Of a stretch of 64,000 bases of DNA, positions 6,542-64,000 are shown in pieces. The position numbers were made by a program, and so were the translations under genes. Numbering within the stretch: the first letter of the stretch is position 1; the number at the start of each line of letters is the position of its first letter. Under the pieces are notes generated by a model that worked only from the letters and a program-made list of their open reading frames with translations, was not told where the DNA came from and made no database searches. Source of the stretch: Erysipelotrichaceae bacterium (lineage in GTDB: Bacteria > Bacillota_I > Bacilli_A > RFN20 > CAG-826); assembly GCA_963588055.1 (NCBI GenBank), contig CAVAGB010000009.1, forward strand, positions 1,803-65,802, in the 5' to 3' direction.

Positions 6542-8404
6542 ATGGCAGATGAAATTCTCTATCGTCCGCGCGAACTGTTCCAGACACAGTTGAAAGGCGC
6601 TTATCACAAGTGCGCGGAGGAATATTTCGACAAACTGACCAAAGAATCGAAGGTCAATACGGAAGCCAACGCGCTGCACGTTAAGGAATACAACAAACGG
6701 AAAGCCGAGGAAGAGGAACTCCAAAAGAGCGCTTCTTCCGCGCGCGGTCTGAAGGCTTTCGTGATCGTGATGATGATCATTCTCTTCGTCGTCGGCTCGA
6801 TCGTCGGTCTCGTCGGGATCTTCAACGCTTCGTCCATGTGGTACCTCATTCTGATTGGGGTGCTTGCCATTGGCGGAGGCATCGCGCTTGCCGTGGTGTT
6901 GGCGAAGAAAATCGCAAAGGTAGTGGAAGAGAGGGAAAAAGCGCTGCAAAAAGCCCAGGAAGAAACCAAAAAGGCATTGCAGGTTTGTTATGCCGACATG
7001 GCTCCGCTGAACGCTTCCTTTGATTGGAATGCCCCCTGCGCCATCATGGAGAAGGCGACTCCCATCATCGATTTGGATCCGGTTTTCACCCCTGAGCGCT
7101 TTTGCTACCTTCGCGACAAATTCGGCTTCAAGGAAGAGAAAGATCCTCACGTCACCGTTTTAGGAGCCATCTCGGGAAACATCCAAGGCAATCCCTTCAT
7201 CATGGAAAAGATCCTGACCGAGCATACCGGCAATAAGACCTACACCGGCTCCATCACCATCACCTGGACGACGACCTATCGCGATAAGAACGGCACGCAT
7301 ACCCAAACTCATTCGCAGGTTCTGAGCGCGAGCATCCAGCGCCCCGCCCCTTTCTACCGCACCGACGTCCGTTTGATCTACGGCAACGAAGCGGCTCCTA
7401 GGCTCCACTTTTCTCGCACCCCATTTGGCGCGGACAAAATGAGCGAGAAGGAAAGGGACAAAGCCGCCACTAAAGGAATGAAAGAGCTGCGCAAACTGTC
7501 GGAAGAGCAGCTCTCCAAAGGGGCGAAGCACGTCATCACCCCGATGGGCAACGACCATTTCGATGTCTTCTTCGGAGCGAGTGATCGCGATGATGAAGCG
7601 CAGTTCCGCTTGCTCTACACGCCCCTTGCCCAGAAGAACATCCTCGACCTTATTGAGAATTCCTCTCCCTATGGGGATGATTTCGTCATGGTTAAGGATG
7701 GCATGGTCAATTCCATCGCCTCAGCTCATTCCCAACGCTTCGACTATTCGGCGAACCCAGAGATTTTCATGGGATATGATTGGGTGGATATGAAAGCCAC
7801 TTTCGTGACCTATTGCGACACCTACATTCGTTCTCTCTTCTTTGATTTGGCGCCTCTCCTTTCCGTGCCTCTATATCAAATGCATAAGCCTCATGAATAC
7901 ATTTACGGGGGTTTTGCGTCGAATTTGACCTCGTTCGAACATGAAATCATGGCCAACGGCATGCCTCCTTCTTGCTTCCGCCCGGAGGAAGCCGCCGATG
8001 ATCTGCCTCTTATCATCAAAGATCTCGGTAGCCGCAAAGTCGGAGGGAGCGACGAAGTTCTCCTCTCGGCCTATTCCTTCAAGGAGACCCCTATGGTGGA
8101 GTATGTGACTAAGCTTGGAGGGGATGGCCGCATGCATGACATCCCCATCCATTGGATCCAATACGACCTTGTCAGCAAGAAGTCTTCCATCGGCGTCAAA
8201 AACGTCAAGGGAAGCCGTAAGGACTTCCTGGAGAAGGAGGCGGATAAGTCGCTTGGACTATCCCATGCTTATTTTGAGCGTGGCTTGCTTGCTTTCCTGC
8301 TCGCGGGCTCATTGTCCGAAAGCGTTGATTCTAGGATAGGCAATCTTTTCACAAAGGCCAAAACGGATGATAATAAAGACGCCCAAAATCCCAAGGAGGA
8401 ATAA
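6542..8404 (+). CDS. Hypothetical membrane protein with an N-terminal coiled region, two TM helices and a large C-terminal domain of about 470 aa
   Basis: 620-aa ORF with a strong SD (AGGGAGG) 20 nt after the ffh stop. Hydrophobic segments are FVIVMMIILFVVGSIVGLVGIF and WYLILIGVLAIGGGIALAVVLA. I recognise no catalytic motif. Confidence 0.6.
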   Translation: MADEILYRPRELFQTQLKGAYHKCAEEYFDKLTKESKVNTEANALHVKEYNKRKAEEEELQKSASSARGLKAFVIVMMIILFVVGSIVGLVGIFNASSMWYLILIGVLAIGGGIALAVVLAKKIAKVVEEREKALQKAQEETKKALQVCYADMAPLNASFDWNAPCAIMEKATPIIDLDPVFTPERFCYLRDKFGFKEEKDPHVTVLGAISGNIQGNPFIMEKILTEHTGNKTYTGSITITWTTTYRDKNGTHTQTHSQVLSASIQRPAPFYRTDVRLIYGNEAAPRLHFSRTPFGADKMSEKERDKAATKGMKELRKLSEEQLSKGAKHVITPMGNDHFDVFFGASDRDDEAQFRLLYTPLAQKNILDLIENSSPYGDDFVMVKDGMVNSIASAHSQRFDYSANPEIFMGYDWVDMKATFVTYCDTYIRSLFFDLAPLLSVPLYQMHKPHEYIYGGFASNLTSFEHEIMANGMPPSCFRPEEAADDLPLIIKDLGSRKVGGSDEVLLSAYSFKETPMVEYVTKLGGDGRMHDIPIHWIQYDLVSKKSSIGVKNVKGSRKDFLEKEADKSLGLSHAYFERGLLAFLLAGSLSESVDSRIGNLFTKAKTDDNKDAQNPKEE

Positions 8405-57210: not shown

Positions 57211-57238
57211 GAGGGGTGTTTCGCCCCTCTTTTTCTTT
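57211..57238 (+). terminator. Rho-independent terminator after the 49-aa ORF
   Basis: Stem GAGGGG / CCCCTC followed by TTTTTCTTT. It lies inside the listed ORF 57216..59213, so the potA start must be further downstream. Confidence 0.6.
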
Positions 57239-57347
57239 AGGGGAAGCCCTCTGCTTAAACTCATGTATTTCCCCTCTACCAACCTTGGAAAATAGTCCTA
57301 TAGTTAGCCGTGCCAAATACGAGTCTTTGGAGAATGGAGAAGCACCC

Positions 57348-59213
57348 GTGGCAAGAAAAATCCTCGAACTCAAAAACGTCTCTAAGTCCTATGGAGACAA
57401 AGTGATCCTCGATCACTTCAACCTCTCGATCAACGAAGACGAATTCGTCACCTTCTTAGGCCCAAGCGGCTGCGGGAAGACGACGACCTTGCGCATCATT
57501 GGAGGCTTTGAGACGATGCAGGAGGGGACTTTGCTTCTCGATGGGCAAGCCATTGAGAATCTGCCCTCTCACAAGCGCCCCATTAACACGGTTTTCCAGA
57601 AGTACGCGCTTTTCCCCCATTTGAACGTCTACGACAACATCGCTTTCGGCCTCAGGAACAACATCTATTCCAACGTCTATGACATCGGCATGATGAACAT
57701 GATGGAGGAAAACGGCTTCGACGAAGAGGAGATCGACCTTCTTGCTAAGAAGACCTCCATGATCGAAAAGCCAAAGGACGTGAAGGCGTTTTTGATCGAT
57801 TACTGCGACAAGCGTTCCCCTTCTTTCTTGCTGGAGAAAGCCCTCAAAGCGAAGGGGAAGCGTTTCTCCAGCCCTCAGGATTTTTCGCGCGAGATTGAAG
57901 ATTTGTTGGCTTCCTTCAAATTGGATATCCCGTTTTCTTTTGACCCGTCTCTTTCCTATAGGAAGAACATCGACGAATTGCTGAAGCTAGCCAAAGAGAA
58001 AGACGTCTATGCGAAGATGAAGGAAAGGCTATCCTCCCATAAATTCAAGGAAGAGGTCATTCGCGGCGAAGTCCTCAAAGCCTTGAAGCTCGTGAATCTG
58101 GAAGGGTATGAGGAAAGGGATGTCTCTTCCCTCTCTGGCGGGCAGATGCAGCGCATCGCCATCGCGCGCGCCATCGTTAACAAGCCCCGCATCCTTTTGC
58201 TTGATGAGCCTTTGTCCGCTTTGGACCAAAAACTCCGCAAATCCATGAGATTAGAGCTCAAAGAACTACAGCAGAAGCTTGGTATTACCTTCATTTTCGT
58301 CACCCATGACCAAGAGGAGGCGATGGTCATGAGCGACACGATCGTCGTCATGAACGATGGGGAAATACAGCAGATGGGCCGTCCAGAAGACATCTACAAC
58401 GCCCCCGTGAATCGCTTCGTCGCTTCCTTTATAGGCGAGGCCAACATCCTGCGCGGGGTCTATAGCGCCCCCGGACGCTTCTCGGCCTTTGGGAAGACGT
58501 TCAAAGTCACTTCTAAGGACTTCAAACCCCAAGAGAAGATCTACGTCATCGTCGAGAAGGACGCCTTCGATATCGGCTCCCCGGATTTGTCCCGCATCAA
58601 AGGCAAGGTAACGAATGTGAAATTTGCCTCCAACAAATACTTCCTCACCGTTGACGTGAATGGGACGAAGATCTCCGTTGAAAGCGAGGATCGCTTCGCC
58701 GTTGGGGATGAAATCGGCTTAAGCATCGCTCCCGCCAACATTTATTGCGAGCCCCATTCCTCCAATAAAAGCGAACTGCTCGCTAACTATGAGGGCGCCA
58801 ATATCGTCGAAGGGGAATACCTTGGCAATCAGAAGGTGCTTTTCCTCGGCGCCACCTTCAAAACCTATCTTACGACCTTCGTCCCTGGCGAAGTCGTCGA
58901 CGCGGTCATCCGCCCCGAGGACTTCGATCTTGAATTCGACCATCCCGAGAGCGCTTTGCTCCAAGGCGAAGTCATCAAGACCGCCTTCTCCGGCGTCCAT
59001 TTCTCCTTATGGATCAACGTAAACGGCACCACCCTCCTCGTGCAGGATTACCAAAACTGCGAGATCGGCGACACGGTTGGATTAAAAGTCGACTTCTATG
59101 AGATTCATCTGATGAAAGTGGAGGATGAGGCTCAGCCTTTGGAAATCCGCCAGATCAGGGACAATGCCAGGCGCCTCGCGGAAGAGGCGAAGAAAGAGCA
59201 TGCGGCGCTTTAG
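57348..59213 (+). CDS. potA: Spermidine/putrescine ABC transporter ATPase PotA, enlarged form
   Basis: Motifs FLGPSGCGKTTTLR, LSGGQMQRIAIARA and LLLDEPLSALD. I propose a GTG start at 57348 (VARKILELKNV), downstream of the terminator. The start is uncertain, and TTG at 57327 is also possible. Confidence 0.85.
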   Translation: MARKILELKNVSKSYGDKVILDHFNLSINEDEFVTFLGPSGCGKTTTLRIIGGFETMQEGTLLLDGQAIENLPSHKRPINTVFQKYALFPHLNVYDNIAFGLRNNIYSNVYDIGMMNMMEENGFDEEEIDLLAKKTSMIEKPKDVKAFLIDYCDKRSPSFLLEKALKAKGKRFSSPQDFSREIEDLLASFKLDIPFSFDPSLSYRKNIDELLKLAKEKDVYAKMKERLSSHKFKEEVIRGEVLKALKLVNLEGYEERDVSSLSGGQMQRIAIARAIVNKPRILLLDEPLSALDQKLRKSMRLELKELQQKLGITFIFVTHDQEEAMVMSDTIVVMNDGEIQQMGRPEDIYNAPVNRFVASFIGEANILRGVYSAPGRFSAFGKTFKVTSKDFKPQEKIYVIVEKDAFDIGSPDLSRIKGKVTNVKFASNKYFLTVDVNGTKISVESEDRFAVGDEIGLSIAPANIYCEPHSSNKSELLANYEGANIVEGEYLGNQKVLFLGATFKTYLTTFVPGEVVDAVIRPEDFDLEFDHPESALLQGEVIKTAFSGVHFSLWINVNGTTLLVQDYQNCEIGDTVGLKVDFYEIHLMKVEDEAQPLEIRQIRDNARRLAEEAKKEHAAL

Positions 59214-60835: not shown

Positions 60836-62025
60836 GGAAAGCATTGATTGGCTCATCGGTCTTCCTTTTGGCCTTCACCGTCTTCGCCTGCATGGTGCTC
60901 AACACCCCTTCCAGCGTCCTTTATCTGCTCAACTGGGGCGAATACATCGATTCCTCTTTGGTGAAGGGGTTCGAGAAGAAGTTCAATTGCCAGGTGATTG
61001 AGGAGACGGTCACTTCCAGCGAGACCATGTATCAGAAGATCGCTAGCGGCACGACAAGTTATGACGTCGCTATCCCCGGTGACTACGCGGTTACTAGGCT
61101 CTACCAGGAAGGGCTGCTTTTGGAACTCGACGTGAATAACGCCTCCTACCCTAACCTCGCCTCTTATCGCACCGCCTTTCACCCCGCGCTGAAGGCGTTG
61201 ATGGACCAGTATATGGTGGATGAGAAAACCAACGAGTCCTTCGCCTCCTATTTCATGCCTTACTTCTGGGGCACTTACTCTTTGATCTATTCCACCCAAA
61301 CTCCAGGCGTAGAAGAGTCGGTCTTAAGCAATGGCTTTGCTTCTCTTTATGACAATTCGCTCACCCCCGAGGGAACGAAGAAGGGGATGTACGATACGGC
61401 GAGATGGATCGTCGCGAGTTACCTTCTCTCCCAGGGCAAGGACCCCAACATCGTCGACGAGTCCGGATCGAAGGATGGCGACATCTCCGAATCCCTGCAG
61501 AAAGAGATCATCCAAGCGGTGAAAGAGGCGGGTTTTGCGGAGTTAGGCAACGATTCGTTGAAAAGGAACGTCGCCAATGGGAAGCTCGACATGTGCTTCA
61601 CTCAGCTGGGCGATTATTTCGACGGGCTTTATCTTCTCTACGAAAGTGGTGGAAGCGCAGACGGCTACAAAGTCTCCGTCCCGAAGGTGACCGCGGCCTT
61701 CTTCGATTCGATGGTCATCCCCTCGACGAGCCAGAACATTACCCTCGCCAACGCCTTCGTGGATTACATGCTCGACCCTGAGGTTGCTTATCAGAACGCG
61801 AAGTCGATCGGCTATAGCCCGACCCTTCAAAAGGTAGACGCCTTATTCGAGGAGAGGGCGGACCAAGAGGAGTTCTATCCCTCCCTGTCCCAAAGGGATT
61901 TCTTGAACTCCTATCCTAACTTCCTCAACCCCCTTTACGGCGTCAGCAAATCCTATCTGCTCGAAGCCAAATCCAACGAGTACCTGACCACCTGCGAGAC
62001 GATCCTCAACAACCTTTCCTTATAA
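60832..62025 (+). CDS. potD: Spermidine/putrescine-binding protein PotD (membrane-anchored, possibly a lipoprotein)
   Basis: The ATG at 60832 overlaps the potC stop. N-terminal signal LLAFTVFAC and block YLLNWGEYID. Confidence 0.85.
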   Translation: MRKALIGSSVFLLAFTVFACMVLNTPSSVLYLLNWGEYIDSSLVKGFEKKFNCQVIEETVTSSETMYQKIASGTTSYDVAIPGDYAVTRLYQEGLLLELDVNNASYPNLASYRTAFHPALKALMDQYMVDEKTNESFASYFMPYFWGTYSLIYSTQTPGVEESVLSNGFASLYDNSLTPEGTKKGMYDTARWIVASYLLSQGKDPNIVDESGSKDGDISESLQKEIIQAVKEAGFAELGNDSLKRNVANGKLDMCFTQLGDYFDGLYLLYESGGSADGYKVSVPKVTAAFFDSMVIPSTSQNITLANAFVDYMLDPEVAYQNAKSIGYSPTLQKVDALFEERADQEEFYPSLSQRDFLNSYPNFLNPLYGVSKSYLLEAKSNEYLTTCETILNNLSL

Positions 62026-62136
62026 TGGCCAAAAAAGAAGTGGGCAAGGAGGACTTTCGGAGTAGAATAAGCGAGCCTTCCGAAAGGAAAGCGCTTGGCT
62101 TGAAACCCGGTGTCCGGGGTCAAGGCCAATCCACAG

Positions 62137-62213
62137 GCGGGCATGGCGTAATGGTAGCCGCGATAGACTTAGGAAATAAAGTTTTAGCGGAATTCGGGTC
62201 CCGAAAATGCTAG
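62137..62213 (+). pseudogene. tRNA-Leu-like relic (canonical 5' half, decayed 3' half)
   Basis: GCGGGCA-TG-GCG-TAATGGTAGC-CGC-G-ATAGA-CTTAGGA aligns with the 5' half of the intact tRNA-Leu, including a 16-nt identity CGCGATAGACTTAGGA (62159-62174 versus 62474-62489). The anticodon 3' stem and acceptor 3' strand are missing. A T-arm-like remnant GCGGAATTCGGGTCCCG remains. Confidence 0.35.
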
Positions 62214-62238
62214 ATGGCATCGAAGGAATTCGGAAATG

Positions 62239-62438
62239 TGCGGACGAAAGTACGTGCGGACAAACCCCAAAAACGCGAAAAAAGCCCCGAAATCCGTCCG
62301 CATGGGGTGAAAACGGTGCGGACGAAGCCCTGTAATTTGTCCCGTTTCAGTGGGAAAATACCAGGGCGAAGCAAGCTGTCGGCGAATGCGGACGAACGCG
62401 CGGACAGCATTATCCCCAAACTCTTCTATCCGTCCGCA
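62239..62438. repeat. Array of seven TGCGGAC heptamers (five direct, two inverted)
   Basis: Direct copies lie at 62239, 62255, 62317, 62387 and 62399 (the last reads CGCGGAC). Inverted copies GTCCGCA lie at 62296 and 62432. Three direct copies share TGCGGACGAA, and both inverted copies share ATCCGTCCGCA. Confidence 0.7.
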
Positions 62439-62450
62439 AACCCTACATAA

Positions 62451-62535
62451 GCACTAGTGGCGAAACTGGTATACGCGATAGACTTAGGATCTATTGGGAC
62501 ACCCCGTGCAGGTTCAAGTCCTGTCTAGTGCACCA
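62451..62535 (+). tRNA. tRNA-Leu (anticodon TAG), class II with a long variable arm
   Basis: Acceptor GCACTAG/CTAGTGC, anticodon arm ATAGA-CTTAGGA-TCTAT, variable arm TGGGACACCCCGT, T arm GCAGG-TTCAAGT-CCTGT, encoded CCA. Confidence 0.85.
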
Positions 62536-62548
62536 TCGAAAAGATAGT

Positions 62549-62583
62549 CTCCAAGTCCCTGAAAAGACGCTTGGAGGCTTTTT
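62549..62583 (+). terminator. Rho-independent terminator after tRNA-Leu
   Basis: Stem CTCCAAG / CTTGGAG followed by GCTTTTT. Confidence 0.55.
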
Positions 62584-62658
62584 ATACCTGCGTAATTTTA
62601 AGGATACGGCGCGGATTCCGACGATGTTAAACGGAATAGTTCTAATGCCGAACCGAAC

Positions 62659-62691
62659 TTGACTCTCTCTCTCTCTCTCTCTCTCTACAAT
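62659..62691 (+). promoter_or_regulatory. Candidate promoter of the LRR lipoprotein gene, with a dinucleotide-repeat spacer
   Basis: TTGACT (62659-62664) and TACAAT (62686-62691) are separated by a 21-nt spacer made entirely of CT repeats. Confidence 0.55.
62663..62686. repeat. (CT)12 perfect dinucleotide microsatellite
   Basis: Counted directly: 24 nt of uninterrupted CT. Confidence 0.95.
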
Positions 62692-62716
62692 AAAAGAAAT
62701 TTTGGAGGCAGGGAGA

Positions 62717-64000
62717 ATGAAGAAATATATTTCCATAGCTTTATGCGCCTTTTCACTAACTTTGGCGGGGTGCGCGTCGGCCCCGAATAGCCCAACCGAA
62801 GGTGGCTCCTCGTCTGAGGGCACCGGAAGTTCAATCCCATCTCATGAGCATACCTATAGCGACTCATGGAGCAATGACGATACCTACCATTGGCATTCGG
62901 CGACGTGCGAACACAAGGATTTGGTGAAAGACAAGACGACACATACCTTTGGCAGCTGGACGATTGATAAGCAAGCCACCGAATACGAGACCGGATCACG
63001 CCACAGGATTTGCACGGTTTGCGAGTATCGCGTCGACGACACAATCGCCAAATTGGATCACACCCACAAAGCAGGCGATCCCGTGAAGGAGAATGAAGTG
63101 GCCCCGACTTGCGAGGGATACGGCTCCTACGACACGGTCGTCTATTGCACCGAATGCAACGCGGAGATCTCCCGCGTAAACGAGACGATTTCGCCTCTCG
63201 GGCATGATTATGGGGAATGGGCGGTGAAGACGCCGGCCAAATGCCAGGAGGATGGGACGGAAGAAAGAGTGTGTTCTAGGGACCCATCCCATAAAGAGAC
63301 CCGCAAGATCGAGGCTATTGGGCATAAGTGGGGCGAAGTAACCTACGAATGGAGCGATGATTATTCGAATTGCACGGCCAAGCGCGTGTGCGAGAACGAT
63401 CCTTCCCACATCGACTCGGAGAAGGTGGCCTCGACTTCAGCCGTGACAAAACAGCCTACTTATTCGGAAGAAGGGCTCATAAAATACTCCGCCGTCTTCA
63501 AAAATGAGGCTTTTGCCAAGCAGGAATATAATCTCGTCACTGAAAAGAGGAGCATGCTTTCCTATAAGCTCAGCACCGATGGGACTTATTACACCGTCAA
63601 GATGGATTCTTCCTCGATATTCGGGGACATCGTCGTCCCTTCGACCTACAACAACCTTCCGGTCAAGGAAGTCGATTACCTCGGCTTCTACGGCTGCACA
63701 AAGATAACCTCAGTCGCCTTGCCTTCCAGCATTGTCAAGATTGGCTACTCGGCTTTCGAGACCTGCTCTTCCTTGACGAGCGTAACCTTGAACGAGGGTC
63801 TCACTGAAATAGGGTACGAGGCCTTCATGTCGTGTGACAAACTCGAGGCAATTGAAATCCCTTCGACTGTCGCTAAGATCGGGTATAACGCCTTCTATCG
63901 CTGCACCGGACTCAAGGAAGCCACCCTGAAAGATGGCTTGGTTGAAATCGGGAGCTGCGCTTTCTACAACTGTTCATCTCTGGCTTCCATTCACATCCCG
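62717..64000 (+). CDS. Surface lipoprotein with Cys/His-rich repeat modules and BspA-type leucine-rich repeats (3' end outside the window)
   Basis: The frame is open from the ATG at 62717 to the window end (428 codons), so it is absent from the ORF track. SD GGAGG lies 8 nt upstream. Lipobox LTLAGC. Repeated modules of the form GH..GEW..K.PA.C...G.E.RVC are followed by LRR units such as VALPSSIVKIGYSAFETCSSLTSVTL. Confidence 0.75.
   Translation, partial: MKKYISIALCAFSLTLAGCASAPNSPTEGGSSSEGTGSSIPSHEHTYSDSWSNDDTYHWHSATCEHKDLVKDKTTHTFGSWTIDKQATEYETGSRHRICTVCEYRVDDTIAKLDHTHKAGDPVKENEVAPTCEGYGSYDTVVYCTECNAEISRVNETISPLGHDYGEWAVKTPAKCQEDGTEERVCSRDPSHKETRKIEAIGHKWGEVTYEWSDDYSNCTAKRVCENDPSHIDSEKVASTSAVTKQPTYSEEGLIKYSAVFKNEAFAKQEYNLVTEKRSMLSYKLSTDGTYYTVKMDSSSIFGDIVVPSTYNNLPVKEVDYLGFYGCTKITSVALPSSIVKIGYSAFETCSSLTSVTLNEGLTEIGYEAFMSCDKLEAIEIPSTVAKIGYNAFYRCTGLKEATLKDGLVEIGSCAFYNCSSLASIHIP

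Follow-up and report, generated by a model that had tools for sequence, protein, structure and literature searches.

A (CT)12 microsatellite between the promoter hexamers of a BspA-type LRR lipoprotein gene, a probable slipped-strand phase switch in an uncultured lineage of gut Bacilli

Does a run of twelve CT units that fills the space between the two promoter hexamers of a surface lipoprotein gene turn that gene on and off, or is it a microsatellite of no regulatory consequence? Repeat-driven phase variation of promoter spacers is textbook knowledge for a handful of cultured pathogens, and phase variation in the gut microbiome has mostly been studied as DNA inversion in Bacteroides. The locus lies near the end of the 64,000-nucleotide stretch of DNA analysed here (the window), and an initial annotation had claimed that the gene behind the tract is phase-variable. 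We conclude that the (CT)12 locus is probably a slipped-strand promoter-spacer phase switch, a reading to which the comparisons of sequence below lead us to give a probability of about three in four.

The organism behind the window has PolC, which identifies it as a member of the Bacillota, and carries Mollicutes-type markers, namely a MAG1210-family protein (6542-8401) and a PotD with a weak match to the MG045 lipoprotein. Its TopA is 66-70% identical to proteins from MAGs that bear the labels Bacilli bacterium and Candidatus Enteromonas; the closest named relatives are Candidatus Enteromonas (66-67% TopA identity), a taxon of the GTDB order RFN20 and family CAG-826 (PMC8035907). The PotA ATPase of potABCD (57216-59213) is unusually long, with an ORF of 665 aa in the window and 621 aa in the related contigs L019 and L154, and has two ABC_tran matches with an insertion between them. 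Such insertions are familiar from Mollicutes transporters.

The promoter elements all lie on the + strand and read as a compact unit. A -35 hexamer, TTGACT (62659-62664), and a -10 hexamer, TACAAT (62686-62691), each match their consensus (TTGACA and TATAAT) at five of six positions and flank an uninterrupted (CT)12 microsatellite (62663-62686; Tandem Repeats Finder score 48, 100% matches), the proposed hypermutable spacer. The window thus has an uninterrupted short repeat between recognisable -35 and -10 hexamers, and the repeat overlaps both of them: its first CT is the last 2 nt of TTGACT, and its last T is the first nucleotide of TACAAT. The spacer proper (62665-62685) measures 21 nt, and 10 CT units instead of 12 would give 17 nt, as the initial annotation had correctly calculated. 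From sigma-70 promoter geometry, transcription is predicted to start at 62697-62700, 6-9 nt past TACAAT; a Shine-Dalgarno sequence, GGAGG (62704-62708), lies 8 nt 5' of the ATG at 62717. Direct reading confirmed to the base the positions previously assigned to the hexamers, tract, Shine-Dalgarno sequence, and start codon. TTGACT is invariant across all orthologous and paralogous loci that we compared.

Upstream of these hexamers is a conserved element, TAGTTC...CCGAAC-cgaac (62637-62658, + strand), in which CGAAC-N5 abuts the -35 hexamer; its role is possibly UP-like or operator-like. The same CGAAC-N5-TTGACT context recurs at 12 other loci among the matches listed, and several of these have a GTTCG...CGAAC dyad 5' of the -35 hexamer. 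The (CT)12 tract is the only period-2 array that Tandem Repeats Finder detects in the 64-kb window, and when one mismatch is allowed, (CT)6 matches no place in the window other than this tract and one unrelated site (0.73 expected from shuffles). An assembly artefact is ruled out, as the arrangement recurs in independent SPAdes and MEGAHIT assemblies.

The gene behind this promoter starts at 62717 on the + strand and runs past the window end at 64000, so that its 5' part is covered. It encodes a BspA-type LRR lipoprotein with a signal peptide, MKKYISIALCAFSLTLAGC (62717-62773, from the translation), that ends in the lipobox LAGC with Cys19, and the 427 aa inside the window match Pfam LRR_5 with E=8e-31. 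The earlier description of a lipoprotein with a lipobox and BspA-like LRRs is borne out by both features, which also make this a contingency-type gene (surface, adhesin, or defence). The full-length ortholog in L001 (CAVKPZ010000042.1) has 966 aa and is 97% identical to the window protein; it matches LRR_5 with E=9e-155, and its Pfam matches are LRR_5 and LRR_8 alone. The nearest protein relatives are LRR proteins of uncultured Bacillota.

Immediately upstream, tRNA-Leu(UAG) (62451-62535, + strand; found by ARAGORN; Rfam tRNA, 57.7 bits) bounds the promoter region. It is followed on the same strand by a terminator-like hairpin (62546-62584) with an 11-bp stem and then UUUUU, whose fold has a predicted energy of -18.6 kcal/mol and a z-score of -3.1 against shuffles. 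A simple terminator scan missed this hairpin because its apical part (12 nt) exceeds the limit of 8. Judging from its structure, the hairpin is a predicted insulator of the lipoprotein gene from tRNA-Leu transcription. With a tRNA gene and a terminator hairpin just 5' of it, the lipoprotein gene needs a promoter of its own in the gap of about 130 nt, and a consensus scanner that accepts spacers of 16-18 nt found no other + strand promoter-like site between terminator and ATG. Rfam matched only the tRNA across 61950-62760.

The neighbourhood of this tRNA is itself unusual. A second tRNA-Leu(UAG) allele is represented at 62137-62174 by its 5' half alone, 38 nt (gcgggcatggcgtaatggtagccgcgatagacttagga) that break off in the anticodon loop; a stretch of 15 nt, gcgatagacttagga, is common to this fragment and the intact tRNA-Leu (62451-62535). 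L154 has the fragment too, together with an intact tRNA-Leu (6649-6732) whose 5' half differs from it at one base. In L001, just the final 24 nt of the tRNA are present, and the sequence before them is unrelated. From these arrangements the tRNA-Leu looks like an integration hotspot behind which the gene differs between strains. Between fragment and intact tRNA, a 200-nt stretch (62239-62438) that is conserved in L021 and L154 and has no Rfam match contains six of the eleven TGCGGAC heptamers found in all 64 kb, in both orientations. These heptamers may be protein-binding sites of the arm type or operators.

For a spacer switch of this kind, the RNA polymerase of the organism should have a fixed optimal spacer, of about 17 nt, so that changes in the repeat move the promoter into and out of its working range; the tRNA promoters of the window give a guide. 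Four of them, a small sample, share a spacer of 17 nt: tRNA-Pro (TTGAAT-17-TATACT), tRNA-Ala (TTGACA-17-TATTGT), tRNA-Ile (TTGCTT-17-TATATT), and tRNA-Val (TTGAAG-17-GATAAT). We base the 17-nt rule on these four promoters because a window-wide count of consensus promoter pairs showed no enrichment of any spacer length. Sigma-70 promoters lose most of their activity when the spacer falls outside 16-18 nt. Measured against the 17-nt tRNA spacers, 21 nt falls beyond the range in which the promoter would work, and an off or low state is predicted for the sequenced clone. The consensus scanner, with its limits of 16-18 nt, makes no call for the window promoter at 21 nt; it does call a promoter at the sister loci in L025 (17 nt) and L021 (18 nt), each with 10 of 12 matches. 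We therefore lean towards an off or low promoter in the sequenced clone, with somewhat less assurance than for the switch as such.

Evidence that the tract changes in length comes from relatives of the lipoprotein gene. The 427-aa window fragment, used as query, led only to LRR-rich proteins below about 750 aa in length and to none of the orthologs; with the full-length L001 protein, relatives 62-68% identical to it were found, and their contigs were then compared. Two of these relatives, at the P0122 and P0124 loci, share the promoter layout of the window. At the P0122 locus the gene again sits behind tRNA-Leu, its protein shares 68% identity with the L001 ortholog, and the promoter reads TTGACT-(CT)n-AT-TACAAT. 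In four samples the tract has 7 units in L020 (ERZ27279228) and L151 (ERZ27279232), 8 in L152 (ERZ27279220), and 9 in L021 (ERZ27279213), which correspond to spacers of 14, 14, 16, and 18 nt; the left flank of these four has 0 mismatches in 129 nt and the gene side 3-10 in 3200. The P0124 locus lies in a genomic context different from that of the window, encodes a protein 64% identical to the L001 ortholog, and has the layout TTGACT-(CT)n-[T]AAAAT, with 10 units and a 17-nt spacer in L025 (ERZ15610578) and 8 units and a 13-nt spacer in L153 (ERZ15610561); these two samples differ at 1 of 3200 positions.

Within each sister locus, the tract differences between samples are multiples of 2 nt, that is, whole CT units, at an overall divergence of 0.03-0.3% across about 3.3 kb. 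A tract that shifts by whole units while almost nothing else changes carries the signature of slipped-strand mutation. Across all related loci the tracts range from 7 to 13 units and the spacers from 13 to 23 nt. Genes whose proteins are about 65% identical still share TTGACT, the TAnAAT hexamer, and the Shine-Dalgarno sequence, and the repeat has stayed uninterrupted in these diverged genes, so the arrangement appears to be under selection. The window's own allele was found in two genomes, the window and L001, which differ by 2.8% at the nucleotide level; both have n=12 and a 21-nt spacer. The comparison with related genomes that the initial annotation had proposed thus revealed unit-wise heterogeneity at the two sister loci, and a single length (n=12 in 2 of 2) for the allele of the window. 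Exact-flank DNA scans gave no match in the JGI metagenome collection and, in the GTDB representative genomes, none but the L001 contig; the window lineage is barely sampled in these two collections. Taken together, the length shifts at sister loci, the insulated gene, and the 17-nt tRNA promoters support the claim of a phase-variable promoter spacer.

A third paralog, P0123, shares 62% identity with the L001 ortholog and adjoins a CRISPR-Cas locus with cas1, cas2, and csn2. It has a T tract 5' of its start codon instead of CT (L022 2936-2950, L023 239-254), which is T13 in one and T14 in the other of two samples that encode an identical protein.

We propose that (CT)12 serves as the hypermutable spacer of a sigma-70-type promoter, TTGACT-N21-TACAAT, which would drive the surface-exposed BspA-type LRR lipoprotein gene. 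Strand slippage in replication would gain or lose whole CT units, and each event would alter the spacing of the hexamers and their rotational register by 2 bp. Ten units would give the canonical 17 nt and an on state, 9 or 11 units (15 or 19 nt) weak expression, and 8 or 12 units (13 or 21 nt) an off state. The sequenced 21-nt clone would most likely be silent or very low, two contractions away from full on. In short, we infer control of transcription by spacer length, a start just past TACAAT, and an off state at 21 nt.

The same design is not confined to the lipoprotein family. A scan of the GTDB representative genomes for TTGA(CT)8 or longer yielded at least 119 loci, and two recurrent modules stand out among the matches listed. 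The CGAAC family has the layout CGAAC-N5-TTGACT-(CT)n-TAnAAT, which in the window reads gccgaaccgaacTTGACT. Its members come from bins of one project (L048, L053, L067, L075, L108, L120, and, twice, L122), with L150 added by a second scan. Its cargo includes DUF6273 lipoproteins (L122), and several cargo proteins have no signal peptide and no Pfam or PADLOC match. The AGTGC family (AGTGC-TTGACT-(CT)n-TA(A/G/C)AAT) comprises at least 20 loci in MAGs labelled Bacilli or Erysipelotrichaceae (records L040, L057, L058, L064, L069, L071, L082, L090, L104, L109, L113, L117, L128, L134, L135, L140, L141, and L148), and several copies precede large lipoproteins of 950 to 1250 aa. Among the matches listed, the tract runs into a TAnnnT hexamer at all 12 CGAAC-family loci and at 19 of 20 AGTGC-family loci. 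Neither cassette was found in the viral contigs scanned.

Individual members illustrate how the module varies. L150 (122-147) has an interrupted tract, (CT)8-AT-CT, with a spacer of exactly 17 nt, and at the orthologous locus in L108 the (CT)8 is uninterrupted and the spacer 13 nt long; from its sequence, L150 may be a locked-on allele. L154, whose PotD falls into the same 90%-identity cluster as that of the window, has an unrelated 289-aa gene behind its tRNA-Leu, and this gene is preceded by TTGATT-(CT)8-ACAAT (6866-6892) with a 15-nt spacer. The 289-aa protein has no Pfam or PADLOC match. This arrangement implies that different genes at one chromosomal site have come under the CT-promoter design.

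Similar sequences also appear under other names. The Spirochaetia MAG RGIG3334 from goat rumen has five TTGA(CT)9-10 loci (L031, L043, L094, L102, L110), of which at least two continue with TATGAT and lipoprotein genes, and L073 (titled Helicobacter vulpis) and the related sequences L123 and L132 have TTGA(CT)8-10 followed by TATAAT or TAAAAT. The CGAAC-family contigs from isolates H076xx-L1_cleanbin are titled, for example, Bacteroides uniformis, Roseburia hominis, or Sodaliphilus; they have 33-47% GC, Shine-Dalgarno-led genes, and the promoter cassette of the window. The organism titles of these contigs, of L001 ('Lachnospiraceae bacterium'), and of the sister bins look unreliable.

The two families differ in the spacers that they favour. 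Among the AGTGC-family matches listed, 19 loci have 8 (two loci), 9 (five), 10 (eight), or 11 units (four) and none has more than 11; the mode is n=10 (8/19), and a 17-nt spacer occurs in 7/19. The commonest state of the CGAAC family among the matches listed is 21 nt, at five independent loci (window/L001, L048, L122b, L075, and L120), and it is attained in two ways, by (CT)12 and by (CT)11+T. The remaining CGAAC loci mostly have spacers of 13-16 nt or of 23 nt; few of those listed have 17-18 nt. If lengths simply drifted around an optimum of 17 nt, such an excess of 21 nt would not be expected, and 21 nt could have a function of its own. It is possible that 21 nt is selected as a tight off state two steps from on, as promoters with 15 and 19 nt may be leaky; it is also possible that 21 nt is a second functional register, in which the upstream dyad perhaps takes part.

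These observations allow a broader view, in which the window switch is one copy of a modular, lineage-wide phase-variable cassette (dyad TAGTTCG...CGAAC, TTGACT, (CT)n, TAnAAT) placed before many unrelated genes. The preference of the CGAAC cassette for 21 and 13 nt (17 plus or minus 4) would then represent a selected two-step deep-off state or a second register. We hold this view tentatively, as possible rather than probable. Under it, the cargo in reduced-genome gut Bacilli would consist of LRR and DUF6273 lipoproteins and of cytoplasmic proteins without a known domain.

Several other explanations compete with a spacer switch. The tract might be a length-unstable microsatellite without regulatory effect, with another signal, or read-through from the tRNA, giving rise to the transcript and the hexamers in place by coincidence. 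In favour of this, the two diverged strains (window and L001) have n=12 in common, and the window-wide scan shows no excess of consensus promoters. We nevertheless consider this unlikely: the hexamers flank the tract at 31 of 32 family loci among the matches listed, before unrelated genes and in varied contexts; the tract is kept uninterrupted in paralogs 62-68% identical, which argues for selection on the repeat; and a terminator hairpin divides the gene from the tRNA, with no alternative promoter in the gap. Alternatively, the tract might act by means other than spacing, as a triplex (H-DNA), as a protein-binding site, or as (CU)n RNA that hides the ribosome-binding site, with 21 nt a working length. 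The CU run of a read-through transcript could pair with the purine-rich GGAGGCAGGGAGA, and a fold of 62655-62735 with an energy of -17.9 kcal/mol joins it to the region of the Shine-Dalgarno sequence and start codon, but this fold is no better than those of shuffled sequences (z = -1.2; 20 of 200 shuffles fold equally well). The over-representation of 21 nt would suit such a role, as would a regulator bound to the GTTCG...CGAAC dyad, whose position relative to the -10 hexamer shifts with n. However, neither RNA pairing nor a triplex demands the exact abutment of TTGACT and TAnAAT on the tract, the AGTGC family peaks at 17 nt among the matches listed, and the interrupted tract of L150 is fixed at 17 nt, all of which make a role other than spacing improbable.

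A third alternative is a graded rheostat rather than a binary switch, with some expression at any length and a tuned low level at 21 nt, like the T-tract of Helicobacter pylori sabA. Steps of 2 bp yield several states, spacers from 13 to 23 nt are all observed, and a rheostat-like repeat has been described for sabA (PMC4081817). Still, the spacer dependence of sigma-70 promoters leads one to expect expression close to off at both 13 and 21 nt, and we regard a rheostat as very improbable. The reading that we prefer remains a phase switch that acts through the length of the spacer.

Other candidate mechanisms were rejected. A coding frameshift is ruled out: the tract ends 30 nt 5' of the ATG with the Shine-Dalgarno sequence in between, the frame of the ATG has a TGA at 62660-62662, and a start at TTG 62659 would have no Shine-Dalgarno sequence and would be in another frame. 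A promoter on the opposite strand was dismissed, since inspection of the reverse complement by eye revealed no TAnnnT at a usable distance. An invertible promoter was rejected at the window locus, which has neither a recombinase gene nor an inverted repeat. Two further paralogs, P0125 and P0126, which are 46-49% identical to the L001 ortholog, have about 35% GC, and lack a repeat tract, do have a divergent serine recombinase gene (PF00239) directly 5' of them (712-1317 in L026 and L027, 696-1478 in L029). There too an invertible promoter is not supported, as no inverted repeats were found to flank the intergenic promoter region.

If the locus is a switch, the presence of the gene in a MAG would not mean that the gene is expressed. 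Tract length would be a marker of the on or off state in vivo that can be read straight from metagenomic reads, and the signature TTGACT-(CT)n-TAnAAT would offer a simple route to listing the contingency genes of unculturable lineages. BspA-type LRR lipoproteins are likely adhesins that bind the host or a partner. The locus and its relatives would extend slipped-strand promoter switches to uncultured Mollicutes-like gut Bacilli and to a CT unit. In the openly searchable literature we found no published description of a (CT)n promoter-spacer switch, and none of promoter-spacer switches in RFN20 or RF39-like gut Bacilli.

Known systems provide close parallels for each part of the proposal. In Haemophilus hifA/B, a (TA)n repeat lies in the -35/-10 spacer, and changes in the number of units alter the critical spacing and hence transcription; porA has a poly-G promoter repeat (PMC3899988). 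As at hifA/hifB, a dinucleotide fills the spacer of the window promoter, and 2-bp steps would give on, weak, and off states. Unlike the hif promoter, which is bidirectional and belongs to a Gram-negative pathogen, the window promoter is unidirectional, has a CT unit, and precedes a gene for an adhesin-like lipoprotein.

Nearer in lineage is Vmm, which is switched on and off at the level of transcription by insertion or deletion of a dinucleotide (PMC2628566), and in the Mycoplasma mycoides cluster several lipoprotein genes per genome have (TA)n tracts of 10 to 16 units (PMC3053259). Like the genes of Vmm and Vmc, the window gene encodes a surface lipoprotein and has a dinucleotide repeat in its promoter, and the Mycoplasma host of Vmm and Vmc, with its reduced genome, is a relative within the Bacilli/Mollicutes radiation. 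The window locus differs from Vmm in its organism, an uncultured gut Bacilli MAG and not a Mycoplasma, in its CT rather than TA unit, in its product, a BspA-type LRR lipoprotein of about 1000 aa as opposed to the 16-kDa Vmm, and in the conserved CGAAC element 5' of the -35 hexamer. As protein families, Vmm and Vlp did not prove to be related to the window lipoprotein; the likeness lies in the switch, not in the protein.

Nearer in protein are the BspA-like genes of Candidatus Mycoplasma girerdii, which have dinucleotide repeats of 5-12 units that vary between strains and within a population (PMC5476646). The two systems share BspA-type LRR surface proteins, an uncultured host, and a metagenomic setting; the repeats of Ca. 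M. girerdii are intragenic and act by frameshift and truncation, whereas the window tract lies 5' of the Shine-Dalgarno sequence and between hexamers. CT repeats subject to slipped-strand mispairing also occur in the surface adhesin genes sabA, oipA, hopZ, and babB of Helicobacter pylori (PMC2715451). In contrast to the window tract, they lie within the coding sequence, at its 5' end, where they cause translational frameshifts; the promoter repeat of sabA is a T-tract. By comparison with these systems, the proposed mechanism is one already known, of the type of hifA/B, Vmm, porA, and vlp, and what appears to be new is the lineage, the CT unit, and the recurrent cassette.
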